Below are positions 10,321 to 30,102 of a stretch of DNA of 64,000 nt, piece by piece (position 1 is the first letter of the stretch; every line of letters begins with the position of its first letter). A program made the translations under genes and the position numbers. This stretch comes from Acidobacteriota bacterium. GTDB taxonomy: Bacteria > Acidobacteriota > Blastocatellia > RBC074. The stretch spans positions 93,820 to 157,819 of the forward strand of contig JAFDVI010000012.1 of NCBI GenBank assembly GCA_018269055.1, given 5' to 3'. The notes beneath the pieces were generated by a model. It ran no database searches and was not told where the DNA came from. It saw nothing but the letters and a program-made list of their open reading frames with translations.

Positions 10321-12831
10321 TTGAGCTTTACCGACAACAGCAACGTCAACCACTCTCTTCGACCGGAAAGGACGCCTATGATTGATCAACTTGATTCCAA
10401 TGCAGCCAGTCCGGCAAGCCTAGAACCGACACGGGGTGGGCACAGCGATCTGCCCGAAATGCTTCGGACAATTGTCGAAACCGTTGGAGCTTACGGCTGC
10501 ATCCTCTGGCAAGTCGAGCGCCGCTTATCCATTCCCGAAACTTCGTCGGATTTAAAGCTCTTTGCGCTTTCCGAATGGTTTCCCAGAGAACAAATGGCTG
10601 AATTACATGACCTGCCGCTTCACAAATCTGCGACAGGCTTGGTAACCCTGACGCAACAAACTATCAACATTGAAGACATCTGGGCTGATGGTCGCACCTA
10701 TAAAGACGACCCGTTCTTATCGAAGTCTGGCATCAAAGCAATGTGCTCGGTCCCAATCAGTTATCACGATGGGGGCAAAGGAGCGCTCAATCTTTATCGC
10801 AACGAAACAGTACCATTTACAGCCAAAGAAGTGATCCAAATTGAACGAATGGCTCCATTGGTTGCCAGACTGTATCAAGCAACTCGTGATAAAGTCGGCA
10901 TCAATCTAATTACTGGCATTAATGAGTTAATAGAAAAGGCTCGTTTATACAACCCAACCTTCCCTTTGACTCTGGAACGAATAAAAAATTTGCTGAAGGA
11001 AATTTCTGAGTTGGTTTCCAGTTTGTTCCGCTGCTTCGAAACCTCGATCTTTTTAGAAGATTACTATCGCAGTCCTGAAGTATACGAACTAATGGCAACA
11101 ACATGGCCAAAGCTCTTTCCACAAACCGTTTCGCGAAAAGGCGTTGGGCTGACTGGCTGGGTCTTGCAAAATATTGAGCCAGTTAAAATATTTGATTTGA
11201 TGAGCTTTGATAAGGACAAAACCCTTATTGAACGCGAATACCCGGGTATTACTTGGGGGGATGACCTAAATATTCGAGATAATGTTTTTGTGAAACTCAG
11301 ACAAGAGTATGGCGATTTCCCTCCACCGATCAGCTATATGGCTGTCCCCATCATGAATGGCGAAAGTGTTTGTGGTGTTATGAGGTGCAGTTTTGCTGAA
11401 AAAATTCCCGATCATTTTGCGGATCGAGAATTAAGATTGTTGAAGTTAATCGGTGCGCAAATCGGGCAGTGCTGGGATCATTGGCTGACAGAACGAGGCC
11501 GACAGGAAGAAAGGGATGCTTGGAGAAAATTCGTTGCGCGGCTTAGAGAGCTAAATGACATTGTGAATAAGCAGTTGGAACATGCCGAATCTAAGCTTGA
11601 AATTACCCCCATTTTTGAGAAGGCCTTACAAATCGCTGCTGAAGTTGTTGAGGGTGCCGAAATCCTGGATGTTCGGTTGTTAAAACAAGAGGAGCACTCT
11701 GGTTACTTTTATTTTGAAACTACTTATGGGAAGGCGTGGCATAGAGGCGGTGAGAGTGAGAGACAAAAGCGTCTTAAAACGCGGTTTCACTTGAACAACA
11801 GTTTGCCGCAATCAGCGGGCGAACATGTTTATAAAACTCGCCAAACTTATGTGATCCCAGACGTCCGCGCGAAGCAGGCTATTTACCAAGAAGTTTTTCC
11901 AGATGTCCAGCGCATGATTGTGGCCCCGATTTTCCGCAAAAATGAGGTCACCGGTCTTTTTGATATTCGTGGTACCGGCAATCGAGTTTTCCCAGAGTAT
12001 GCCAAGCACATGGCTGAGGTGCTTGGGCAGTTGATAGGCCTGTCTTACGATTTAATATGCGAAATTCGCGACAAGAAATCTCTCGAAGCACAACGGACTG
12101 ATATTGCGAAAACTTTGGCGCACCAATTCAATACACCAATTACTCAAGCTCATGCTCGCGTGAATCAACTAGTTCACAGATTTAAGGAACAAGAAGCGTT
12201 ATTGAAAGGCTTATGGCCGATCCGTGGATTATGCGGCAAAGCGAAGCGAGTCAGTCAAAATATCAGGCTCTTCGCTCAACTTGCTGAAGGTAAAACTGGC
12301 GGTGAGATTGATCTTAAAACAGATTGGATGAAAGCTGACTCTCTGATTCGCCTTCTCAAAGAAGCAAGCTGGGATACCCAGCTATTAGTCGCACCGCGCC
12401 GGAATATTCGGTTTCAAGTTGATGAAGATAGTTTTGATGAAGTTTCGCATGACAAGCATCGAATGCGAGAATTGCTTGTAGACAAAAGCTTACTTGAACA
12501 GGCTATTTTTAACTTGTTAGACAATGCGGCAAAATATAGCCTTCCCGATTCAACTATTAAAATTTACGCTGGTTGGACAGGCGGTGGGCGATTTCACATC
12601 TCTGTTCAGAACAAAGGAATTAAGCTTGAATCAAGCCAGATCAACATTTGTAAAGAATATGGCTGGCAAAGTGAACAAGCAAAAGAAAAAGATAGTAGTG
12701 GCGCTGGAATTGGCCTCTGGTTAATCCATAACATTATGGTGGCTCACGGTGGCGAGTTGATTCCAATCCCAACATCATCAGAGCAAATCACCAAATTTCA
12801 GCTTGTATTTCCGGAAAAAAATGTGAGGTGA
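10321..12831 (+). CDS. Cytoplasmic multi-GAF sensor histidine kinase
   Basis: No TM segments; three GAF-like segments; H-box LAHQFNTPITQAHARV; N/G boxes NLLDNAAKYS and GAGIGLWLIHNIMVAHGGEL; alternative start ATG 10378 (MIDQLDS) has a better RBS; low GC (~42-45%). Confidence 0.85.
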   Translation: MSFTDNSNVNHSLRPERTPMIDQLDSNAASPASLEPTRGGHSDLPEMLRTIVETVGAYGCILWQVERRLSIPETSSDLKLFALSEWFPREQMAELHDLPLHKSATGLVTLTQQTINIEDIWADGRTYKDDPFLSKSGIKAMCSVPISYHDGGKGALNLYRNETVPFTAKEVIQIERMAPLVARLYQATRDKVGINLITGINELIEKARLYNPTFPLTLERIKNLLKEISELVSSLFRCFETSIFLEDYYRSPEVYELMATTWPKLFPQTVSRKGVGLTGWVLQNIEPVKIFDLMSFDKDKTLIEREYPGITWGDDLNIRDNVFVKLRQEYGDFPPPISYMAVPIMNGESVCGVMRCSFAEKIPDHFADRELRLLKLIGAQIGQCWDHWLTERGRQEERDAWRKFVARLRELNDIVNKQLEHAESKLEITPIFEKALQIAAEVVEGAEILDVRLLKQEEHSGYFYFETTYGKAWHRGGESERQKRLKTRFHLNNSLPQSAGEHVYKTRQTYVIPDVRAKQAIYQEVFPDVQRMIVAPIFRKNEVTGLFDIRGTGNRVFPEYAKHMAEVLGQLIGLSYDLICEIRDKKSLEAQRTDIAKTLAHQFNTPITQAHARVNQLVHRFKEQEALLKGLWPIRGLCGKAKRVSQNIRLFAQLAEGKTGGEIDLKTDWMKADSLIRLLKEASWDTQLLVAPRRNIRFQVDEDSFDEVSHDKHRMRELLVDKSLLEQAIFNLLDNAAKYSLPDSTIKIYAGWTGGGRFHISVQNKGIKLESSQINICKEYGWQSEQAKEKDSSGAGIGLWLIHNIMVAHGGELIPIPTSSEQITKFQLVFPEKNVR

Positions 12832-12838
12832 AATTACT

Positions 12839-13279
12839 ATGCGGATTATTTTGATTGAAGATGATTACATGCAGGAAGATTGGATAGGCACTGAGTTGGA
12901 GTCTCGGTTCGTAAAGAAACCGGAAAAAATCTTCAGCGAATTTGGCTTCAGAGAACAACTTAATCAAATAATTGCCTCGCCACCTGACATATTTGTGGTT
13001 GATATTATGCTGCCGTGGACAGAAGTTGGTGAAAGCGATGAAGAGCGCCCAGATGAAGTGAAGGAAGGTGGAAAATTTCGTGCCGGCTTCAGATGTATAG
13101 AGTTGCTTGCAAGGTACGAGAAAACAAGAAATATCCCTATCATTCTTTACAGTGCAATGGCAAAAGACGATTTGAAGGATGAATTACGGCGAATGCCTTC
13201 TCATGTCAGATTCATTCCAAAGGATTCTGATATTCAACCACTCATTGACGCAATACGGGAAGCAGCGGCTCAAGGTTAA
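12839..13279 (+). CDS. Stand-alone response-regulator receiver domain protein
   Basis: MRIILIEDD...DIFVVDIMLPW CheY-like receiver with acidic pocket and phospho-acceptor Asp, plus an acidic insertion; RBS GAGGTGA; no output domain. Confidence 0.75.
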   Translation: MRIILIEDDYMQEDWIGTELESRFVKKPEKIFSEFGFREQLNQIIASPPDIFVVDIMLPWTEVGESDEERPDEVKEGGKFRAGFRCIELLARYEKTRNIPIILYSAMAKDDLKDELRRMPSHVRFIPKDSDIQPLIDAIREAAAQG

Positions 13280-16200
13280 TCATGTGATGCCAATAGCTTG
13301 TTCAGATAATCCTGCCGACTTTGCTTGAAGTGCGTTACATACTCCGGCCAACTTAGTTTGAGGTGCTCTTCAATTTCACGCATTGATTCGTAAACACGAA
13401 AATTGAAGGACCGGTCGGTGGTGATAACTTGTTTACGTAAGTTTTTCGCTAATGCGCTCGAAAACATCTCAAGTAATGTGGCGATTTCATCAGAAACCTC
13501 TTCTTCGACCATTTCGCTTTCGGCCTCTTGCTTAATTGCGAAATGCGGCAACCACTTGAGCAACTCGTTCCAAACTAATATACGCTGCGTTTGCTCATTC
13601 AGCTTTTCTAGCGGAATGTAGAATCTCGGCAAACACTCCACAGCCCACGGAGGCCATAGTCTTGATTGCCCTGCCAGATCTTCTGCCCAAGTTGCGCGAC
13701 GAGGATTGGAATCAATAACTTCCAGTAGCCGAGATCTGAAGGCTAATCGGCGATTCGCTATATTCTCCAATTGTCCAGCTATTTCGGCTAGGGATCTTCC
13801 TATTTCCTCCAGTGGATCTACAGTTTCCAGTAAGGGGTTCACACCGTTCACGACTGGCAAACTCATTTCACTTTGTAACTGAGGAGGCTGCTTCCAACAA
13901 TAAACAATCAGCCCCAAATCCATCGCTTTTTGTTGAAGTGGGTCGTGAAAAGGTCCAAGCTCATCAATGACAATCACTTGAGAACGCGCTTTGTATTTGG
14001 CAATTTGGTCAACTTCTTCTTTCGCTAATGCCGGGAAGAAGAGTAGGTCTGTAATCAAATTCTTGTGTATACGGAGATCAATCTCTTTACTCTCATCAAT
14101 CTCAATTGAATGACCTCTATTCCGAATCTTTTCTTCTGCTCCAACTCTAAGTGAGTTATCGGGCGAGAAATCAGGTAATACCAGCCAAACCACGTCATCA
14201 CGAATCAGGAGGGGCATGACTTTTGATAGGAATTCAAATGTCACATTGCTCTTCCAGTTGTGTGCAAGCATACTAATTGGCAGGCCACCGACTTGTGCTC
14301 TTAACTTATCCAGCAGATTGGCTAGTTCATTGGAGGATATTTTCTGGCACCCTGATTGTGTTTGCAGAGCGTGTCTGTGCGTGCCCCGAGTCAGCACCGG
14401 CTCCTTGGGACGATCGTCACCTTCGCTTTCGTCAATCACTGTTATCGAGCCGAACGCGCGTGAAGGCAGAATCAAGCCCGAATCTTCATTACAGGATCGC
14501 CTTCGAACTGAAGGCGAAGTCAGAGTACCTAGACGAGAGTTTCCGACCAGCTTAAATGGAGATTGAGCGCTCTCTAACGGAAAATCTTTCCATTCCGGCT
14601 TCGCAATGCGAATCGCCCACCAGATGCGATCCAGCGCGCGAACAATGCTTTGGCCCTGTGACAAGGTCAGCGTGCTATGAACTGCCGTTGTCGTCCCATT
14701 TAGTAAATCAAGGAGCAGTTCCCGATACCTTTGGCGGCGTAGCTTGCGAGGTCGAAACCTGTTTGAGTTGGCCGGATCGTTGACAATTTTCAGCTTACGT
14801 TCCTGATAAGGGTCTTGTACATCTTTCGCAACAAGCTCTGGGGCTAGCGACGCATTGCCTTGTAAAAAGAAGATTGAATCATATGGATAACCCCTAACAC
14901 CATTCTCTGGCTTACTCTTGAGGTCAATTCGAATGACGTGGCGGTTGATGCCAGTCAGTTCCATATACTTGGCTTCGCTGCCGAATCCTTTGCCGACGAC
15001 CGCCAGACAGGGAATATGCAACCCGCTGTGAGAGCGATCCTGAAAGGTGAAACGAACGCGAGAGTAAGTTTCGCTCTCATAAGTGTGACTAATGTCTTCA
15101 ACCGAACTGACTTTGGGATAGTCCTTTGAAGTGGCAATTAGCGGTTGATAGCGCCCAGTTTCAACCACCGTAATATCGTCAATCGTCGTGACATCTCCAA
15201 AATAGGTCAGTAATGCAAGCATATGCGGCAGCAAATCGAGCGTCAGCCCATACTGTAAAGCCTTGTCACGTCCAATTTCGATTGGCCGATCTTCAGTCAG
15301 ATAAAACTCAATTCTGGCAATCGCGCCGCCAAGATGCCGGCGAATTTCCGGCAGCAGTTCTTTGATCTCCAGTGCATAAAATTGGTAGTGATCCAATCCA
15401 AGAACCTCTGTACGGGTTTTGGGTTTGAAGGCGCGCCGCAGATCATCCACATTTCCAACTTGGCTGTCGAAGGGCTTTTCAACAAATACCAATGGCACTT
15501 TATTCAGCCATTGGCGCGCCAACAATGAATGAGTGAAATCAGGTGTCACGACGAACACTACATCGGGGCGGAGTTTTTGGTACTTGGCATAATCTTCAGG
15601 CGACGCCTTGTCAAGATAGACTTCCCACTCGTTGAGCCCCGCTGCCCAGCTTTGCACTTTCTGCCGTTGCTCTTCCGTTCGGTACCAACGTGAATCATCC
15701 GTATAAAACACAGAAAGTCGGTGCTGCCGTTTTTCAGTTTTCATGATCTCTTCAAAACGACGGCGATAAGTGTTAATCACCCAATCACCTACACCTTCTA
15801 CGACAATCATCAGCGGACGACGAAGTGGTTGCCGCTTGCCAGCCTTCTTGTTTCGATCAGGCATCCTAAACTCATCTTCTACGGAACCCAACAAGAGCAA
15901 CTTAAGCGGATCAGGTTCGATGACAGTTGCTTCGGGAATAAAGTATCGGTAGACGTCTGTTCCTTTTTTCGCAGAATTGGCCAGTGGAAGAGAAAAGTGA
16001 AGGCGAGCACCACGGACATCTTCCAGCTTACCGGAGGTCTCTGGCTTCAATGGCTCCAGTACCGCTTCAGGGGACGCCGGTTTGACGCAAATGCCCAGCC
16101 TGGCAAAGCGTGAAACCAAAGCCGGATTTTGTGTCAACTGCTCATACAGCATCCGCCCCATATCTAGTCGAGCGCCGCGATTGACGCGAATAGTACGCGC

Positions 16201-16959
16201 TTCGTCATTCAGTGGCGAATCTTTCAACGTTATCCCTGCACGATGGTAGGGGTTGTTGACGTAAGACCGGTTCAGCTTGAAGACTACCTCTTGTGAACTG
16301 TAATAACTGAGTAGAATCGGCCCGTGATCACAGATCAGAGTCTGGTCATTAAGGGGTTGCGATTGCGGTGTATGATGAAAACTCAGTGCAATCAGTGGGC
16401 TGTCATCACTGCTCAGATTGTACAAGGTTGCGTGACATCCGGTCGGCACAGCGATTTTGTCACCTTCTTGGGCAACCCACATCTCAACCTCACTGTTTTC
16501 CCGCGAAAGCAACAGCAGGCCATAGCCTTGAAATTCAAATACCTCGGCAACTCGGTACCCTTCTTCTCGATCGTAAGGGTAGTAATGGCCCATTGTGCAG
16601 CCGAAGCTGTAAACCTCCGATCTTTCCAGAATCACGGCTACATTGCGTGCAACCCAAATATCCGGCAATTGTGGGTCAGCAGGAAAGTCCACACGGCCAT
16701 GAATAGCGTGCACACAGACCTCATGGTGACGATTGAAACCAAATTCACGGTCAAATTGCTCCCAGTCACCACGAAGAAACCTGGCCAGAGAGTTCTCAAA
16801 CGATTGTGATTCAATTTCGTAATTTCGGTTATTAGGAAAGCGTTCTGTTGTTTCAATGCGAATCAACGCAGGACAATTTCTGGCGATCAGGACACGCTGC
16901 TCTGGGTCAGAATGAAGGTGTTGCCGCGGATGATATGTGATTCCATCAGGCAGGTTCAT
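13276..16959 (-). CDS. Large (1227 aa) multidomain protein: cupin-like N-terminus, Gfo/Idh/MocA-like NAD(P)-binding oxidoreductase core, ~500-aa C-terminal region of unknown function
   Basis: Rossmann/GFO_IDH_MocA signature VVFVVTPDFTHSLLARQWLNKVPLVFVEKPF; cupin-like His-rich segment (HHEVCVHAIHG...GHYYPYDREEGYRVAEVFEF); strong RBS AAAGGAGATC before ATG 16959 (ORF-track start 16995 is probably too long); low GC. Confidence 0.8.
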   Translation of the reverse strand: MNLPDGITYHPRQHLHSDPEQRVLIARNCPALIRIETTERFPNNRNYEIESQSFENSLARFLRGDWEQFDREFGFNRHHEVCVHAIHGRVDFPADPQLPDIWVARNVAVILERSEVYSFGCTMGHYYPYDREEGYRVAEVFEFQGYGLLLLSRENSEVEMWVAQEGDKIAVPTGCHATLYNLSSDDSPLIALSFHHTPQSQPLNDQTLICDHGPILLSYYSSQEVVFKLNRSYVNNPYHRAGITLKDSPLNDEARTIRVNRGARLDMGRMLYEQLTQNPALVSRFARLGICVKPASPEAVLEPLKPETSGKLEDVRGARLHFSLPLANSAKKGTDVYRYFIPEATVIEPDPLKLLLLGSVEDEFRMPDRNKKAGKRQPLRRPLMIVVEGVGDWVINTYRRRFEEIMKTEKRQHRLSVFYTDDSRWYRTEEQRQKVQSWAAGLNEWEVYLDKASPEDYAKYQKLRPDVVFVVTPDFTHSLLARQWLNKVPLVFVEKPFDSQVGNVDDLRRAFKPKTRTEVLGLDHYQFYALEIKELLPEIRRHLGGAIARIEFYLTEDRPIEIGRDKALQYGLTLDLLPHMLALLTYFGDVTTIDDITVVETGRYQPLIATSKDYPKVSSVEDISHTYESETYSRVRFTFQDRSHSGLHIPCLAVVGKGFGSEAKYMELTGINRHVIRIDLKSKPENGVRGYPYDSIFFLQGNASLAPELVAKDVQDPYQERKLKIVNDPANSNRFRPRKLRRQRYRELLLDLLNGTTTAVHSTLTLSQGQSIVRALDRIWWAIRIAKPEWKDFPLESAQSPFKLVGNSRLGTLTSPSVRRRSCNEDSGLILPSRAFGSITVIDESEGDDRPKEPVLTRGTHRHALQTQSGCQKISSNELANLLDKLRAQVGGLPISMLAHNWKSNVTFEFLSKVMPLLIRDDVVWLVLPDFSPDNSLRVGAEEKIRNRGHSIEIDESKEIDLRIHKNLITDLLFFPALAKEEVDQIAKYKARSQVIVIDELGPFHDPLQQKAMDLGLIVYCWKQPPQLQSEMSLPVVNGVNPLLETVDPLEEIGRSLAEIAGQLENIANRRLAFRSRLLEVIDSNPRRATWAEDLAGQSRLWPPWAVECLPRFYIPLEKLNEQTQRILVWNELLKWLPHFAIKQEAESEMVEEEVSDEIATLLEMFSSALAKNLRKQVITTDRSFNFRVYESMREIEEHLKLSWPEYVTHFKQSRQDYLNKLLASHD

Positions 16960-17012
16960 GTTTGATCTCCTTTTTGCTGCGAGTGGCAAAATCATCGTTT
17001 CTGGTCAGTGAC

Positions 17013-17580
17013 TCAACCGAACGAAGATTTCGGACAATCCAAACTGGTTTGATTGCCTGCGAATAGGACTGCTGAGCAGGCTGGCGGGCTGAATACTACG
17101 ACAAAGTTGTGAGAACTTCTATTCGACTTTGGGATTCTATAGGTTCCTTGAATGTATTCACTACAGAAGCGCCCGCTTCCGTCAGAGCCATCCTGATCTC
17201 GGATGTAACGCTTGATTTGCTCTTCGTTGAAGCCAACGGTTGAGAACGCGTAACCTTGTGCCCAGAAATGTTTTCCTGTGAAGTTGCGTTCTTTCCCTTG
17301 CAATCGGGCAATCGCAATTACACTTTTGCCTTTGATAAACCCAATCACTGATGCCGCTGCGTGTGTGGGAGGAATCGCAATGCACATTTGGACGTGGTCG
17401 GGCATCGTGTGGCCTTCGATGATCTGGCAATCCTTCTGACGCGCCAGTTCGTGAAAGATCGCTGCGGAGTTGTTTTCGGATGTCCCCAAACAATTCCTTG
17501 CGTCGTCGTTTGGGCACAAACACGACGTGATCTTTGCAATCCCATTTTGAGTGGGACAAACCTTGGTAGTTTTCGTTCAT
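17013..17580 (-). pseudogene. tnpA: IS200/IS605-family tnpA (Y1 transposase), frameshifted
   Basis: N-terminal MNENYQGLSHSKWDCKDHVVFVPKRRRKELFGDIRKQL in one frame (from 17580), then HELARQKDCQIIEGHTMPDHVQMCIAIPPTHAAASVIGFIKGKSVIAIARLQGKERNFTGKHFWAQGYAFSTVGFNEEQIKRYIRDQ in another frame (to 17013); frame switch around 17440-17470. Confidence 0.8.
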
Positions 17581-24625: not shown

Positions 24626-24689
24626 TTTTCAAATTCCAACCCAAGTTACCCAATGAACCAAGCGATCTTTTTTCGTGGAGGACACTAAC

Positions 24690-27600
24690 GTGAAATTGCT
24701 TCGTGCTTTTCTAACGGCAGTGCTGTTTGGCACTGCTCTTTCCATCGCGCTCCATACAGCGAGCGCTCAAGGCCGTAGAGGCGGCGGACAAGGCGGGCCT
24801 CCGGGCGGAGGGCAGCTTGGTGAAGGCGGGCCAGAACGTCCAACAGACCCGATGTCTACGCCGACGTTCAACGGACTGCGATTTCGTTCGATTGGCCCGG
24901 CAGTCGTCGGCGGACGCGTTAATGGATTTGCCGTTGATCCGAACGATCGCGCGAAATACTTCATTGCCGTCGCTTCGGGCGGAGTTTGGAAAACTGTCAA
25001 TGCCGGAACCACCTGGACGCCAGTGTTCGACAACTACGGTTCGTATTCGATTGGCGCGATTGCGCTCGATCCAAATAACGCGTCGGTATTGTGGGTGGGA
25101 ACCGGCGAATACAATTCGCAACGCAGTGTCGGTTATGGCGATGGCGTGTACAAATCTGAAGACGGCGGACGCAGTTTCCGCAAAGTCGGGCTGGATAAAT
25201 CCGAACATATTGGCAAGATCGCGATTGATCCGCGCGATAGCAAAATTGTGTACGTCGCTGCGCAAGGGCCGTTGTGGTCCGCGGGCGGAGATCGCGGGTT
25301 ATACAAGACCACAGATGGCGGCAAAACCTGGAAAGCCGTGCTTTCAATCAGCGAAAACACCGGCGTGACGGATGTCGTGCTCGATCCGTCGAATCCCGAC
25401 ACCGTGTATGCCGCCAGTTGGCAACGCCGCCGCCACTTTTACACCTTGATTGACGGCGGCCCTGAAAGCGCGATTCATAAATCCACGGACGGCGGAGCGA
25501 CCTGGACGAAGCTGCGCGGCGGATTGCCGGCAGGTGATCTTGGCCGTATTGGTCTGGCAATTTCCCCCGTTGATCCCAACGTCGTGTATGCGACCGTCGA
25601 AGCCGCCGCACAGGGCAGCGGCATTTATCGTTCCGCTGACAAAGGCGCAACCTGGGAACGAACCAGCCCCACCATCGCGCAAGGCATGTATTACGGCCAG
25701 ATCATCGCCGATCCGAAAAACGTGGATCGCATCTACATTCCAAACGTGGTTTTTCAGGTTTCGGATGATGGCGGCAGAACGCAGCGCCCCTTGGGCGAAC
25801 GTCTGAAACACGTAGACAACCACGCCATCTGGGTTGATCCGCACAACACGAATTACATGCTGGTTGGTTGCGATGGCGGCGTGTATGAAAGCCATGACAA
25901 AGGTGCGAATTGGCACTTCAAATCCAATTTGCCCATTGCGCAGTTTTATGACGTAGACCTTGACCAGCAATCGCCGTTTTATTTTGTGTACGGCGGAACG
26001 CAGGACAACAACTCACTGGGCGGCCCGGCCAGAACACGTAGCGCCGCCGGGATTCCCAATTCTGACTGGTTTACGACCAATGGCGGCGACGGGTTCACTT
26101 CGCGCATTGACCCTGAAGACCCGAACACAATTTACGCCGAAAGTCAGAACGGCGGCTTGGTGCGATTCAATAAGTTGACAGGTGAACGCACCAGCATCGC
26201 TCCTATTCCGGGCAAATCGGAAGAGTCCCAACGTTACAACTGGGATTCGCCAGTGATTATCAGCCCGCATAACAGCAAACGGCTGTATTTTGGAGGTCAC
26301 AAATTGTTCCGCAGCGACAACCGCGGCGACGATTGGAAAGCCATCAGCGGCGATCTGTCGCGCGGATTGGATCGAGACAAACTGCCCGTGTTCGGCAAAA
26401 TCTGGGGGCCTGACGCCATTGCCAAACACCAATCCACAGCACTGTATGGCAATGCATCCACGATTTCGGAATCACCAAAAAAAGAAGGCTTGATTTACGT
26501 CGGCACCGACGACGGATTGCTGAACATAACCGAAGACGGCGGCAAAACCTGGCGCAAAGTCGAAAAGGTATTGGAAGTTCCCGAAGGCTGCTACGTGCAT
26601 CGCGTGCTGGCTTCGCAGCACGACGCCAACACTGTGTACGCGCTCTACAACAATCACCAAAACGGCGATTTCAAACCGTATCCGGTGAAAAGCACGGACG
26701 CCGGAAAAACCTGGACGCTGATCAATGGCAATTTGCCCGAACGCGGTTCGGTGTATGCCATCGCCGAAGACACAGTGAACCCGAACCTGCTGTTCATCGG
26801 CACAGAGTTCGGCATCTTCTTCACAGTGGACGGCGGCACGAAATGGATACAGTTGAAAGGCGGATTGCCGACCATCGCCGTACGCGACATTGCCATTCAC
26901 AAACGCGAAAACGATTTAGTGATCGCAACCTTTGGCCGAGGCTTTTATGTGCTCGATGATTATTCCCCGCTTCGGGGCGTGAAGGCCGAAGTGCTGGCGC
27001 AGGAATCCAATCTGTTCCCCGTCAAGGATGCGCTGATGTACATCCGTTCTTCCGCCACCATTGGCAGTCAGGGAGCTTCACAATATCTGGCGCAAAACCC
27101 TGCGTATGGGGCGACAGTGACGTATTACCTGAAAGATCCGATTCGCACGAAGCGTCAACTTCGCCAAACCGCCGAGCGCGAAGTCACACGCAAAAACGAA
27201 CCAATCAAATATCCGACGCGACAGGAATTGCGTGAGGAAACCGAAGAGGAAGCGCCCGCTTTACTGTTCACCATTACCGATGCCAAAGGTGAAGTCGTCC
27301 GCCGGTTGACGGCTCCGGCATTGCCCGGCATTCAGCGCGTCGTATGGGATTTTCGCTACGCGCCGCCAATCGTCCAGGCTGCGCCGCAATTGCCTCCGGG
27401 AATTGAAATCGAAGGCGGCGCAGGCGGCGGCTTCGGCGGGTTCGGCCCGCAAGGCGAATTGGCTATGCCGGGCAAATACACTGTGACCATGGCCAAACGT
27501 GTTAACGGCATCATCACTCCTCTGCCCGGTACCCAAAGTTTTAACGTCGTTGCCGAAGGCACGGAAAAGATGACTCCGCAGGATCGCACGATCCTGGCTG

Positions 27601-28049
27601 AGTTCCAGCGCAAAGTCGTCAAATTACAACGCGCCGTCGCTGGCGCTATGGATGCCGCAAACAGCGCCAAAACGAAACTCGGGTTGATGAAACGCGCTGC
27701 CCTGGAAGCTCCCGGTTCAAATCAAACCTTGCTCAACGAAGTCAACGCTGTTGACGACAAAGCCGATGAGGTATTGCAAGCCTTGCGCGGAGGTCGTGAG
27801 TTGACGGACATTCCGCCGCCTTCGATCAATCAACGCGTCAATGCCATTTCGCAGCGCATCCGCATGTCGGCTCTGCGCCCCACGCAAACTCAGCAAGAGC
27901 AATACGCCATTGCCGCCGAGGATTTCAAAGCGGTCATGGTCAAGCTCAAAACTCTGGTGGACATGGATTTGCCCAAACTGGAAAAGGGATTGGAGGGTGC
28001 AGGCGCTCCATGGAGCGCAGGTCGCTTGCCCGTCTGGCCTGACAAATAA
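24690..28049 (+). CDS. Large secreted BNR/Asp-box (sortilin/VPS10 or GH74-like) beta-propeller protein
   Basis: Signal peptide; repeated S/T-x-D-G-G-x-T/S-W motifs (SEDGGRSF, TTDGGKTW, STDGGATW, SADKGATW, TEDGGKTW, STDAGKTW, TVDGGTKW); GGAGG RBS before GTG 24690. Confidence 0.8.
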   Translation: MKLLRAFLTAVLFGTALSIALHTASAQGRRGGGQGGPPGGGQLGEGGPERPTDPMSTPTFNGLRFRSIGPAVVGGRVNGFAVDPNDRAKYFIAVASGGVWKTVNAGTTWTPVFDNYGSYSIGAIALDPNNASVLWVGTGEYNSQRSVGYGDGVYKSEDGGRSFRKVGLDKSEHIGKIAIDPRDSKIVYVAAQGPLWSAGGDRGLYKTTDGGKTWKAVLSISENTGVTDVVLDPSNPDTVYAASWQRRRHFYTLIDGGPESAIHKSTDGGATWTKLRGGLPAGDLGRIGLAISPVDPNVVYATVEAAAQGSGIYRSADKGATWERTSPTIAQGMYYGQIIADPKNVDRIYIPNVVFQVSDDGGRTQRPLGERLKHVDNHAIWVDPHNTNYMLVGCDGGVYESHDKGANWHFKSNLPIAQFYDVDLDQQSPFYFVYGGTQDNNSLGGPARTRSAAGIPNSDWFTTNGGDGFTSRIDPEDPNTIYAESQNGGLVRFNKLTGERTSIAPIPGKSEESQRYNWDSPVIISPHNSKRLYFGGHKLFRSDNRGDDWKAISGDLSRGLDRDKLPVFGKIWGPDAIAKHQSTALYGNASTISESPKKEGLIYVGTDDGLLNITEDGGKTWRKVEKVLEVPEGCYVHRVLASQHDANTVYALYNNHQNGDFKPYPVKSTDAGKTWTLINGNLPERGSVYAIAEDTVNPNLLFIGTEFGIFFTVDGGTKWIQLKGGLPTIAVRDIAIHKRENDLVIATFGRGFYVLDDYSPLRGVKAEVLAQESNLFPVKDALMYIRSSATIGSQGASQYLAQNPAYGATVTYYLKDPIRTKRQLRQTAEREVTRKNEPIKYPTRQELREETEEEAPALLFTITDAKGEVVRRLTAPALPGIQRVVWDFRYAPPIVQAAPQLPPGIEIEGGAGGGFGGFGPQGELAMPGKYTVTMAKRVNGIITPLPGTQSFNVVAEGTEKMTPQDRTILAEFQRKVVKLQRAVAGAMDAANSAKTKLGLMKRAALEAPGSNQTLLNEVNAVDDKADEVLQALRGGRELTDIPPPSINQRVNAISQRIRMSALRPTQTQQEQYAIAAEDFKAVMVKLKTLVDMDLPKLEKGLEGAGAPWSAGRLPVWPDK

Positions 28050-28127: not shown

Positions 28128-28937
28128 ATGAAACCATTTGCCGCAAACGCGCGCCGCTCTGATTTCTGTATGAAGGACTTTGTTGACCGCCATTCCGTTG
28201 TTCGCTCCATCTGGGGCTGTTCCGATACGATCTTGCTGGTGTTTGCCGGCGCGGCGGCGGAGTTCGCCCTGAATCGCGCAGTGGACTGGCTGTTTTTTAC
28301 GAACCGAATTCCCAACGATCCCATTGGGCGATTGTTTTCAACCGTACGGTATGGGCAGGAAATCGTTTTTGCCGACGAAGCGGCGGTTCAAAACGTCTTT
28401 CATCGTATCAACGCGGCACACTCCGCAGTGGAACAACGACGCGACCAACAGATTCCGGACTGGGCTTATCGCGATGTGCTTTACATGCTGATTGATTATT
28501 CCGAGCGCGCCTACGAACTGGTGCGCCGCCCGCTCAGCCTGGCGGAAAAAGATGATCTATACGATGTATTTTATCGTGTGGGCTTGGGGTTATATGTAAA
28601 GCAGCTTCCTCCAAATTATGCAGAATGGCGGATTGACCGGCAGCTTCATTTGGAGCGCGATCTCGCCTACAGCCAGCATACAGCTTTGCTTTATGAAAAA
28701 TACCGGCAACATTTGGGCTGGTGGCGATACCAATTGGTGTTGCGGCTGCAAGCTGCGTTGGTTCCTGACCATGTTCGCCGGTTGTTGAAGCTTGAACCGT
28801 TTCCAGTGCTCGCTCCAGCGTTGAAGGCGTATGGATTGTTTGGCGTGGGCAAATTGCGCTCAACCGCGCAGTGGCTGTTGCTGCCAGCCGATCGCCTGGA
28901 AGATGTCAGGCGACTCGATTCCGCCAGCATCGCCTGA
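28128..28937 (+). CDS. Hypothetical protein (possibly DUF2236/MpaB-type oxygenase-like)
   Basis: 269-aa ORF with coherent codon usage; weak resemblance to MpaB-like family only. Confidence 0.5.
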   Translation: MKPFAANARRSDFCMKDFVDRHSVVRSIWGCSDTILLVFAGAAAEFALNRAVDWLFFTNRIPNDPIGRLFSTVRYGQEIVFADEAAVQNVFHRINAAHSAVEQRRDQQIPDWAYRDVLYMLIDYSERAYELVRRPLSLAEKDDLYDVFYRVGLGLYVKQLPPNYAEWRIDRQLHLERDLAYSQHTALLYEKYRQHLGWWRYQLVLRLQAALVPDHVRRLLKLEPFPVLAPALKAYGLFGVGKLRSTAQWLLLPADRLEDVRRLDSASIA

Positions 28938-28992
28938 GCCTTTAGCGAGGGCTTGCCCTGAATTTACCGGTCAAAGTATTTCGAGAAAACTG

Positions 28993-30102
28993 ATGTGGCA
29001 ACGACATAAAATCTTATGGATTTCCATTGCGGCAGGCTGGATGCTGATTGCGCTGTCGTTCACGCTGAATTACTTTTTCTTTTCCAGTCATTACGTCACG
29101 ATTTTCAGCACGCCACCGACGTTGTTGCAGATGCTGGTCTGGGAAATTCCTTATTGGATTTTGTGGGCGGCGCTGGCTCCGGTGGTGTTTTTGATTACAC
29201 GCCGGTTTCCGCTGGAACGGCAATCGTGGTTGCGGAATGCTTCGATTCACGCGGCAGCGGGTATCGGCCTGGCCATCGCCCATCGGATTGTTTACCTGCC
29301 AATTTGCTGGCTGCTGTACGTGGACGTGTACCGGAAAATGCCTTCGCTGACGGATTTATACGCGTCGGATTTGCTGTTCAACCTGCCAACGGGTTTGATG
29401 TGTTACGGCACGTTTTTGCTGGTCAGTAACGTCATCGAATACTACGAACAATCGCAGGCGGGCAAACTTCGCGCGTCGCAATTGGAAGCGCAACTGGCGC
29501 AATCGCAGTTGCTGGCGCTGAAAATGCAATTGCATCCGCATTTTTTGTTCAACACGCTGAATTCAATCTCCGCTCTGCAAATGACCGATGTCGAAGCCGC
29601 CAATCGAATGACAGCTCGGCTGGGCGATTTTCTGCGGATGACGCTGGACAACGTCGGCGCGCAGGAAGTCACGCTGCGACAGGAAATGGAGTTTCTACGC
29701 TGTTACCTGGAAATTGAACGCATACGATTTCAGGATCGCATGGAACTGACGATGGACATTGATCCGGACGCGCTGGATGTGCATGTGCCGAACTTGATTC
29801 TGCAGCCGCTGCTGGAAAATTCGATCAAATACACGGTGCTTCTCAGAACCGGCACCGGGCATATCCAAATTCGAGCCAATCGTTCTGCGGAAGTTTTACG
29901 AGTGCAAGTGGAAGACGACGGCATTGGTTTGCAGATGCCTCGCAACAGCAACCAGGTGACGCGCGGAGGCGTTGGCTTATCCAACACCAAAGAGCGTTTA
30001 AGGCAGCTTTACGGAAACCTGCAGAGCTTCGCGCTGGATCATTCGTCGAGCGGCGGCGTGCTGGTGACAATGGAAATTCCGATTCATAGAAATGGCAATT
30101 GA
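28993..30102 (+). CDS. LytS/YehU-type membrane sensor histidine kinase
   Basis: 4-5 N-terminal TM helices; His_kinase H-box LKMQLHPHFLFNTLNSISAL; HATPase (QPLLENSIKY, GGVGLSNTKERL); start chosen at MWQRHK. Confidence 0.85.
   Translation: MWQRHKILWISIAAGWMLIALSFTLNYFFFSSHYVTIFSTPPTLLQMLVWEIPYWILWAALAPVVFLITRRFPLERQSWLRNASIHAAAGIGLAIAHRIVYLPICWLLYVDVYRKMPSLTDLYASDLLFNLPTGLMCYGTFLLVSNVIEYYEQSQAGKLRASQLEAQLAQSQLLALKMQLHPHFLFNTLNSISALQMTDVEAANRMTARLGDFLRMTLDNVGAQEVTLRQEMEFLRCYLEIERIRFQDRMELTMDIDPDALDVHVPNLILQPLLENSIKYTVLLRTGTGHIQIRANRSAEVLRVQVEDDGIGLQMPRNSNQVTRGGVGLSNTKERLRQLYGNLQSFALDHSSSGGVLVTMEIPIHRNGN

Follow-up and report, generated by a model that had tools for sequence, protein, structure and literature searches.

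Oxidoreductases of the Gfo/Idh/MocA family use a catalytic set formed by the lysine of an EKP motif and a D-x3-H pair. Among two-component systems, Detocs consists of the kinase DtcA, the receiver DtcB and DtcC, a receiver-PNP effector (bioRxiv 10.1101/2023.01.24.525353). The locus analyzed here lies in a 64,000-nt stretch of an Acidobacteriota genome (assembly GCA_018269055.1, contig JAFDVI010000012.1, positions 93,820 to 157,819), referred to as the window. It centers on a gene for a 1,227-amino-acid protein, in which a cupin and a Gfo/Idh/MocA-type dehydrogenase are joined to an accessory module of two further domains, A and B, and which converges with genes for a receiver and a histidine kinase. 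No description of this architecture was found in the literature searched. The chance seems to us about even that the product of the gene serves as the enzyme-plus-adaptor subunit in a portable two-component signaling cassette.

Gene and protein family

The gene was located on the minus strand, where an uninterrupted open reading frame (ORF) spans 13276-16995; the plus strand across 13276-16959 is crowded with stop codons. Translation from an ATG at 16959, with AAGGAG about 7 nt upstream (a good Shine-Dalgarno sequence), gives a product of 1,227 amino acids (aa). Both this ORF and its three-part architecture of cupin, Gfo/Idh/MocA dehydrogenase and C-terminal region had been proposed in a preliminary description made by a model from the sequence alone, and both were borne out, the former by the Shine-Dalgarno sequence and homologues, with the cupin assigned to the phosphoglucose-isomerase type. 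A promoter and terminator scan around the gene gave nothing exceeding chance. The gene and the parts of its product were assigned as follows (pLDDT, predicted local distance difference test).

13276..16959, minus strand: complete gene, a natural fusion of enzyme core and accessory module; 1,227 aa and stop codon (ORF, Shine-Dalgarno sequence, 18 fused homologues)
16255..16707, minus strand: cupin (beta-jelly-roll) domain of PF06560 type, aa ~85-235 (motifs TMGHYY...EVFEFQ...VPTGCHATLYN)
15400..15819, minus strand: NAD(P)-binding Rossmann domain, aa ~381-520 (motifs EGVGDW, D421-D422, LDKA, TPDFTHS, VEKPFD; PF01408)
14569..15399, minus strand: substrate-binding alpha/beta domain and closing helices, aa ~521-797 (motifs LDHY, GLTLDLLPH, VGKGF, ALDRIWWAI)
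14356..14568, minus strand: disordered linker, aa ~798-868 (pLDDT <50; T857-R858(-G) motif at nt 14383-14391)
13894..14346, minus strand: domain A, Rossmann-like (beta-alpha)6, aa ~872-1022 (pLDDT 85-92; hhalign match to the core)
13279..13815, minus strand: domain B, helical with a small sheet, aa ~1049-1227, motif WPxWAVECLP (pLDDT ~85-92; no Pfam or PDB match)

Protein P0001, from the 310-kb contig of an Acidobacteria metagenome-assembled genome, is identical to the window protein, and a search of 5.8 billion proteins gave 94 further relatives. About 20 relatives are full length at 38-55% identity and come from independent assemblies or different samples (the full-length alignment of fused forms held 18 homologues), and about 70 are of ~800 aa, matching just the first 65% of the window protein. 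Because of P0001 and the independently assembled full-length relatives, the ORF is neither a chance frame nor the assembly chimera that the preliminary description had allowed for; it is a real, conserved and rare gene. A survey of 185,579 species genomes gave just five loci, in Pyrinomonadaceae, Thermoanaerobaculia and Micrarchaeota, and the distribution of the family is patchy, covering Acidobacteria, Chloroflexi and archaea, often beside transposases or integrases. Loci of relatives are numbered L001 onward and their proteins P0001 onward.

Accessory module and its two-component partners

The conserved core ends at about aa 797 and is followed by a tail of about 430 aa (residues ~800-1227). 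The boundary had earlier been drawn at about aa 740 (LRRQRYRELLL), which falls within a confidently modeled core helix. The claim of a ~500-aa motif-free tail thus held in that no known domain was matched, but the tail is shorter and is not featureless: its AlphaFold model (pLDDT 75) comprises the disordered linker, domain A and domain B. It had also been allowed that a characterized domain might account for the tail; searches of Pfam, NCBIfam, PADLOC and PDB sequences gave no match. A PDB profile search with the tail returned designed coiled coils alone, taken as noise, and Foldseek of the tail model against PDB and BFVD returned nothing meaningful. OpcA, the partner of glucose-6-phosphate dehydrogenase (G6PD), was considered as an identity for the accessory module and rejected, with no Pfam match at E <= 1 for the window tail and six standalone accessory proteins.

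The counterpart of the tail is a separate downstream gene in most relatives. This 400-420-aa gene lies directly downstream of the 800-aa core forms, and its product and the tail share 26% identity (E = 4e-28 and 7e-28). Because the two parts are fused here and are separate adjacent genes elsewhere, the core and the accessory protein probably act together (the Rosetta-stone argument). Word-indexed homologue searches recovered one protein with the tail alone and three with the tail alignment, and a full HMMER scan was needed; across 1.84 billion representatives, the tail (A+B) profile matched 389 representative clusters. Among the 143 new representatives listed, 36 carried A+B, 36 carried A only and 49 carried B behind another N-terminus. 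The fusions comprised B with HATPase_c (P0191), SLOG with B (P0162), HEAT with B, and TPR with A. Judged by these architectures, domains A and B are independently mobile.

The two proteins encoded on the opposite arm of the locus are as follows.

12839..13279, plus strand: single-domain receiver, 146 aa (weak Pfam REC match, E = 0.003; insertion P..V...G..RAGFRC after beta3)
10321..12831, plus strand: cytoplasmic GAF-GAF(-GAF) histidine kinase, 836 aa from the first start codon (GAF and HATPase_c matches; HATPase_c E = 2.7e-12)

A receiver and a GAF histidine kinase, convergent with the big gene, were present in 12/12 loci whose accessory module has domain B (the window, L001/2, L003-L008, L014-L016 and L030). 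Loci with a domain-A-only accessory protein (L013, L017/38, L018/19, L040, L020/39 and L026) were without both. The kinase and receiver noted in the preliminary description are real neighbors, and the idea that they are functionally linked to the gene is supported; the conserved neighborhood asked about there was present in all 12 of the domain-B loci and in none of the domain-A-only loci. Domain B is predicted from this distribution to couple to the kinase/receiver pair.

Kinase orthologues, 29-42% identical, occur in all domain-B loci, and receiver orthologues, 37-48% identical, occupy the same position in other loci. An H-box (LAHQFNTPIT), an N-box (LLDNAAKY) and a G-box (GAGIGLW) were read from the kinase translation. 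In the receiver, the acidic-pocket residues E7 and D9, the phospho-acceptor position D55, S/T105 (S105 in the window) and K128 are conserved in 12 orthologues. By these residues and boxes, the kinase and receiver are competent as a two-component pair. The receiver family was absent from the viral contigs searched.

The same module was found with another gene set. At L046-48 (the P0162 loci), genes for a transmembrane protein, a ThsB-like TIR protein and a SLOG-domain B protein, in that order, converge on genes for a 152-aa receiver and an 834-aa GAF kinase. The transmembrane protein matched PADLOC model PDC-M50A (E = 5.6e-31) and the ThsB-like TIR protein was matched at 9.3e-13. The receiver there, 38.6% identical to that of the window, carries the same insertion (profile E = 2e-53); the kinase shares 35% identity with the window kinase over 823 aa (E = 9e-153), and domain B was matched at E = 2.8e-46. 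Because orthologues of the kinase, receiver and domain B occur at these TIR-SLOG loci as well, the three are read from sequence as a portable signaling module that is joined to two or more distinct gene sets. The Thoeris-like set with its two-component pair lies at L046:6242-12961, and also in L047 and L048, and is a seemingly undescribed combination of TIR/SLOG with a two-component system. One relative of the window protein, P0050, has an N-terminal PNP domain matching the Detocs-like PADLOC model PDC-M60C (1.8e-27). Such PNP domains are ATP nucleosidases that mark defense systems (bioRxiv 10.1101/2023.01.24.525353).

Domain A was compared with the core dehydrogenase profile by hhalign (Prob 89.5%, E = 2e-6, 98 columns), while Prob stayed <1% in all seven control comparisons made among domains A and B, receiver, cupin and core. 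Domain A is for this reason read as a paralogue that has diverged from the NAD-binding Rossmann domain of the enzyme itself. In the alignment, PLTILIHGWGS of domain A is set against PLxIVVEGAGDW of the core, vxLDL...D.RIY.NLv.DLVFFP against EVYLDKAD...Y..LRPDVVFIVTPD, and RARAvIV against PLVFV, just before EKP. The EKP lysine is lost in domain A, and D922 and D971 are invariant. Most domain A members keep a G-x-G loop (HGWG), which is aligned to the EGAGDW loop of the core; the window version is HNWKS, without G-x-G. Fold matches of domain A were weak, to oxidoreductase N-terminal domains. Two candidate relationships were rejected at hhalign Prob <1%: domain A as a receiver-like phospho-acceptor, and domain B as a relative of REC, cupin or core.

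In the linker, T857 and R858 are invariant among fused forms, and an [VI]RTRG motif is present in 1-4 copies at the N-terminus of standalone accessory proteins. It could be a docking or cleavage motif. Accessory proteins bearing it are encoded at L038:9369-9980, L040:12388-12999, L013:3778-4335, L015:4248-5426 and L023:1031-2215. Those of L038 and L040, both the aligned accessory proteins from CHAT-flanked loci, have several copies each (in L038, for example, PVRTRGPVRTRG...PVRTRGAVRTRG).

The big gene (minus strand) and the receiver gene (plus strand) both end in the palindrome TTAA at 13276-13279, where their stop codons overlap. Convergent 3'-end overlaps were also seen in relatives (4 nt in L001, 15 nt in L003 and 8 nt in L005), an arrangement which suggests that transcription of the two arms is either coupled or subject to interference. 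At L005:14178-19031, two pairs of GAF kinase and receiver stand in tandem next to one cupin-dehydrogenase cassette. L004:1-9040 holds two more gene sets, each of a PAS kinase, a ~160-aa gene and a 369- or 490-aa gene, together with a 796-aa protein without Pfam match upstream of the cassette, and the C-terminal third of the receiver recurs as a duplicate in a 55-aa ORF at L004:13704-13871. The 369-aa gene, which lies beside another kinase, was considered as a domain-B protein and found not to be a domain-B relative.

Enzyme core

AlphaFold modeled aa 1-800 with very high confidence from 81 sequences (pLDDT 90.9; predicted template modeling score 0.91), and the cupin and dehydrogenase are for this reason taken as one rigid body. 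According to the model, residues 1-797 are one compact rigid enzyme, in which the cupin is joined to a dehydrogenase resembling both Gfo/Idh/MocA enzymes and G6PD.

GFO_IDH_MocA (PF01408) was the sole Pfam family matched in the window protein, at aa 447-514 (E = 1.7e-6, 29.1 bits vs. a cut-off of 24, profile positions 50-112 of 120). This match and the motif VVFVVTPDFTHSLLARQWLNKVPLVFVEKPF, at aa 467-497, confirmed the Gfo/Idh/MocA NAD(P)-binding signature for which that motif had been quoted in the preliminary description. A Pfam scan of 60 relatives gave PF01408 in 60/60, PF06560 in 11/60 (best 2.9e-7) and G6PD_N in 3/60 (best 9.2e-5). For the window protein, no G6PD_N or G6PD_C match was obtained at E <= 1, so that it falls outside G6PD by hidden Markov model.

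The glycine-rich dinucleotide loop after beta1 is E388-G389-V-G391-D-W393, and D421-D422 ends beta2, which suggests a preference for NAD. Invariant residues in the 81 sequences comprise G389-x-G391-x-W393, D422, D450-K451, D474, H477 and E494-K495-P496-F497-D498 in the Rossmann part, and D523-H524, E556, R564, D575-x3-H579, D594, E630, K657 and Y745 in the substrate-binding part; the window protein retains all of them. The EKP motif (E494-K495-P496) and the D575-x3-H579 pair characteristic of Gfo/Idh/MocA enzymes are thus present. Because the catalytic set (K495 of EKP and D575-x3-H579) is intact, the dehydrogenase is predicted to be active. LDHY (D523, H524) presumably resembles the G6PD substrate motif RIDHY (RIDHYLGK type).

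Foldseek gave G6PD (2bhl, 7xhl, 8i37) and glucose-fructose oxidoreductase (GFOR, 1ofg) as best matches to the core, at E ~1e-13, with template modeling (TM) scores of 0.5-0.63 for G6PD. The GFOR-type C-terminal alpha/beta sheet domain (pLDDT >90) matched GFOR 1ofg, 1evj and 5a02 at E ~1e-12, with a TM score (target) of 0.6-0.68. Sequence profiles put the dehydrogenase closer to Gfo/Idh/MocA than to G6PD, and PDB G6PD sequences gave E ~0.6 against the family profile. On the sequence and fold tests taken together, the core belongs to Gfo/Idh/MocA. The domain-level similarities all lead to glucose-6-phosphate-handling families (PF06560, G6PD_N and G6PD folds), and the inositol-type chemistry suggested earlier found no specific support.

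The cupin was modeled as beta-rich across aa 87-230 (pLDDT >90). PF06560, the cupin-type glucose-6-phosphate isomerase family, was not matched by the window protein itself; the earlier reading of a cupin-like N-terminus is supported indirectly, by the relatives that match PF06560 and by the beta-rich model. Judged by its motifs and by the profile matches of relatives, the cupin appears to be of the archaeal phosphoglucose-isomerase type. Across the 81 sequences, the ligand positions are kept as H125 in 71/81, H127 in 70/81, E139 in 76/81 and H176 in 74/81. The window protein keeps three of the four metal ligands (H125, E139 and H176), with Y127 replacing His, and has F92 at a position that is His in 75/81.

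Genomic context

The G+C content is 0.41-0.50 over ~10.4-17.3 kb vs. 0.52-0.59 in the flanks. Within this low-G+C segment (10400-17519), which looks like a horizontally acquired island, lie the kinase, receiver and big genes and, 53 nt upstream of the last of these, an IS200-like transposase.

17013..17519, minus strand: IS200-like Y1 transposase (PF01797, E = 8e-21)

In 10 loci, the gene directly upstream of the core encodes a NAGPA-like (phosphodiester glycosidase) protein of 465-500 aa, for which the NAGPA match was borderline (22-26 bits vs. a cut-off of 25, in 4/4 tested). In the window, the IS200-like transposase occupies that position, and no NAGPA-like match was found anywhere in the window. 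Neighbors of the cassette in other loci were as follows, the first four entries being of conflict or mobile-element type and the last four belonging to sugar metabolism.

L005, ~5 kb upstream: ThsB-like TIR gene (PADLOC 8.7e-59) and TPR gene
L008, L038, L039, L040 and L001: CHAT-TPR
L014: TnsD/TniQ
L003: integrase, UvrD-PDDEXK and SNF2-PLD
L004:17327-18220, L005:19260-20993, L014:12962-15013 and L016:7374-9296: pyruvate kinase, directly beside the GAF kinase
L001: PFK
L003 and L005: SorC-type regulator
L039: ROK and DeoR

The pyruvate kinases are atypical and mutually divergent (27-37% identity, up to 683 aa), and the L004 copy is seemingly internally deleted. SIS, GT2 and glycoamylase genes were also near some loci. 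Pentose-phosphate partner genes such as 6PGL and gnd were seen in no locus. Two further window genes are unrelated to the cassette: a 1124-aa Sortilin/BNR-repeat protein at 24675-28049 and a LytS-type (His_kinase) sensor kinase at 28831-30102.

Proposed role and alternative explanations

In the proposed mechanism, the cytoplasmic GAF kinase would sense a small-molecule or stress signal and phosphorylate the output-less receiver. The phospho-receiver would then dock on domain B, and this docking would, by way of the pseudo-Rossmann domain A, switch the enzyme on or off. The enzyme would isomerize and/or oxidize a phosphorylated sugar with NAD(P)+; candidate substrates are glucose-6-phosphate/fructose-6-phosphate, or a sugar phosphate that the NAGPA-like or PNP partners seen in relatives would release from a nucleotide or a glycoside. 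Both the likeness to glucose-6-phosphate enzymes and the glycosidase or nucleosidase partners would agree with a free reducing sugar phosphate as substrate.

A plausible role for the cassette, in which we have somewhat less than even confidence, is that of a conflict- or stress-type system whose effector is metabolic. On balance this appears slightly more likely than routine control of carbon flux, because orthologues of the kinase, receiver and domain B are found in the service of a TIR+SLOG locus and one relative has a Detocs-type PNP domain. The conflict-type and mobile neighbors, the low-G+C segment with its IS200-like element and the rarity of the family were also counted in its favor. 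In its fuller form, which we put forward tentatively and with more doubt than belief, the window would be a member of an undescribed Detocs-like family of two-component immune or conflict systems. Its members would share the GAF kinase, the receiver with the RAGFRC insertion and domain B, and would differ in interchangeable effectors: TIR+SLOG, or the cupin-dehydrogenase with its pseudo-Rossmann partner, to which a NAGPA-like glycosidase or a PNP of ATP-nucleosidase type may be added. In the latter type, a central-metabolism-style enzyme would act as an abortive effector that, once the kinase is activated, collapses or rewires the pool of sugar phosphates or of NAD(P).

Several points weigh against this proposal and the mechanism behind it. 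No PADLOC model matched the big protein, the accessory protein or the NAGPA-like protein, and the window flanks carry ordinary genes and no defense island. Many neighbors are sugar-metabolism genes, which fit ordinary metabolic regulation equally well. The domain-B proteins P0166, P0129 and P0191 show no visible kinase or receiver, their contexts being short or uninformative. In the window protein, loss of G-x-G (HNWKS) may have impaired nucleotide binding by domain A, and Y127 with F92 may have weakened the isomerase half. The substrate, the cofactor and the direction of signaling are all inferred.

Ordinary regulated carbohydrate metabolism would explain much of the same evidence and was judged rather unlikely. 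A bifunctional hexose-phosphate isomerase/dehydrogenase would divert fructose-6-phosphate/glucose-6-phosphate oxidatively, or modify a sugar destined for a polysaccharide or a small molecule, with the kinase and receiver tuning it to nutrients or redox state; the link to TIR and CHAT genes would be incidental. PF06560, G6PD_N and the top G6PD folds all belong to glucose-6-phosphate enzymes, the NAGPA-like gene is of sugar-phosphodiester glycosidase type, and the core matches no defense model; the pyruvate kinase beside the kinase in four loci and the nearby PFK, SorC-/DeoR-type sugar-phosphate regulators, ROK, SIS, GT2 and glycoamylase genes lend further weight. However, such an enzyme would be at odds with a family that is very rare, patchy and often beside mobile elements (here in a low-G+C island), with the absence of 6PGL and gnd, and with pyruvate kinases as divergent as those found. 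Nor would it account for a dedicated kinase/receiver/domain-B module held in common with a Thoeris-like TIR+SLOG locus, or for the defense-clade PNP domain of one relative. The regulated production of a modified carbohydrate envisaged in the preliminary description may still apply, but module sharing, the PNP fusion and the frequent TIR, CHAT and transposon neighbors point at least as strongly to an effector of conflict or stress type.

The flow of signal might instead be reversed, which we consider improbable. The cupin-dehydrogenase, with the NAGPA-like protein or PNP, would make or process a nucleotide- or sugar-derived messenger, domain A, a Rossmann-type fold as SLOG is, would sense it, and domain B would relay its ligand state to, or be gated by, the receiver and kinase, in parallel with a TIR protein as maker and the SLOG-domain B protein as sensor. 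Both cassette types do consist of an enzyme, a Rossmann-type domain joined to domain B, a receiver and a GAF kinase; the HGWG loop of most domain A members aligned to the core dinucleotide loop and the independent mobility of domains A and B (36 A+B, 36 A only and 49 other+B) would also agree with a sensor. Yet any messenger would be hypothetical, the window domain A has lost G-x-G, domain A in loci that have no kinase and receiver must also act independently of a relay, and the direction of signaling cannot be read from sequence. As for an artefact, whether an assembly chimera or a meaningless frameshift or stop-loss fusion of adjacent genes, the separateness of the two parts in most relatives could be cited for it, but it can hardly be credited: the ~20 independent fused homologues share the linker and an invariant TRG motif, most fused forms group together in a rough neighbor-joining tree of the core, and the identical protein was deposited from a 310-kb contig.

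If the enzyme-plus-adaptor reading is true, the cassette would represent a new wiring of a two-component system to an enzyme, with an output-less receiver acting via a dedicated adaptor, domain B, and with a degenerate copy of the enzyme's cofactor-binding domain acting as regulator of that enzyme. Possibly it would also introduce metabolic effectors of a new class, with a sensor module in common with a Thoeris-like TIR/SLOG system, and would widen the Detocs idea of defense by phosphotransfer to GAF sensors and to sugar-phosphate/NAD chemistry. Read conservatively, it is a rare, horizontally mobile enzyme family of hexose-phosphate type, with testable regulation, defined domain boundaries and residues to mutate.

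Comparison with described systems

We rate the locus as an effector under two-component control that has a Gfo/Idh/MocA enzyme at its center and includes two uncharacterized domains. With Gfo/Idh/MocA oxidoreductases (Zymomonas GFOR, inositol 2-dehydrogenase) the window protein shares PF01408, the Rossmann and alpha/beta sheet domains, EKP, D-x3-H and TPDxTH, with a Foldseek TM score (target-normalized) of ~0.6 to GFOR. It differs from them in its identity of ~13-15%, its rigid 800-aa cupin fusion and its G6PD-like motifs (GDW, LDHY), as well as in having a pseudo-Rossmann paralogue as obligate partner and in being coupled to a two-component pair.

The likeness to G6PD (Zwf) lies in the best structural matches (2bhl, 7xhl and 8i37) and in the G6PD_N matches of 3/60 relatives, and core motifs were taken by us to resemble GASGDLA, VEKPFG and RIDHYLGK of G6PD. 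Unlike G6PD, the window protein has no G6PD_N or G6PD_C match, its profiles are nearer to Gfo/Idh/MocA and its D-x3-H spacing is not that of G6PD. The cupin-type phosphoglucose isomerases of Pyrococcus and Thermococcus (PF06560) share with it the TxGHxH...EVY...PxxxH..N pattern, and metal-ligand positions are kept in 70-76/81 sequences; the window cupin differs in its fusion to a dehydrogenase, in the Tyr at the second His ligand and in having no Pfam match of its own.

Detocs is similar in that a histidine kinase and a stand-alone receiver lie beside an enzymatic effector, in the PDC-M60C match of P0050 and in a weak match of the receiver to PDC-M60B (E = 0.005 for the window, 8.6e-6 for L046). 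Here, however, the sensor is GAF rather than TPR, there is one receiver, and the effector is a cupin-dehydrogenase with domain B instead of a receiver domain of its own. The locus was placed outside Detocs on the lack of a PADLOC match for the big protein, the E-value of the window receiver against PDC-M60B and hhalign Prob <1% for domains A and B against REC. The Thoeris-like TIR+SLOG loci L046-48 resemble it in that orthologues of its receiver and GAF kinase flank a ThsB-like TIR and a SLOG protein ending in domain B; the window cassette differs from them in having, in the places of TIR and SLOG, the cupin-dehydrogenase and domain A.

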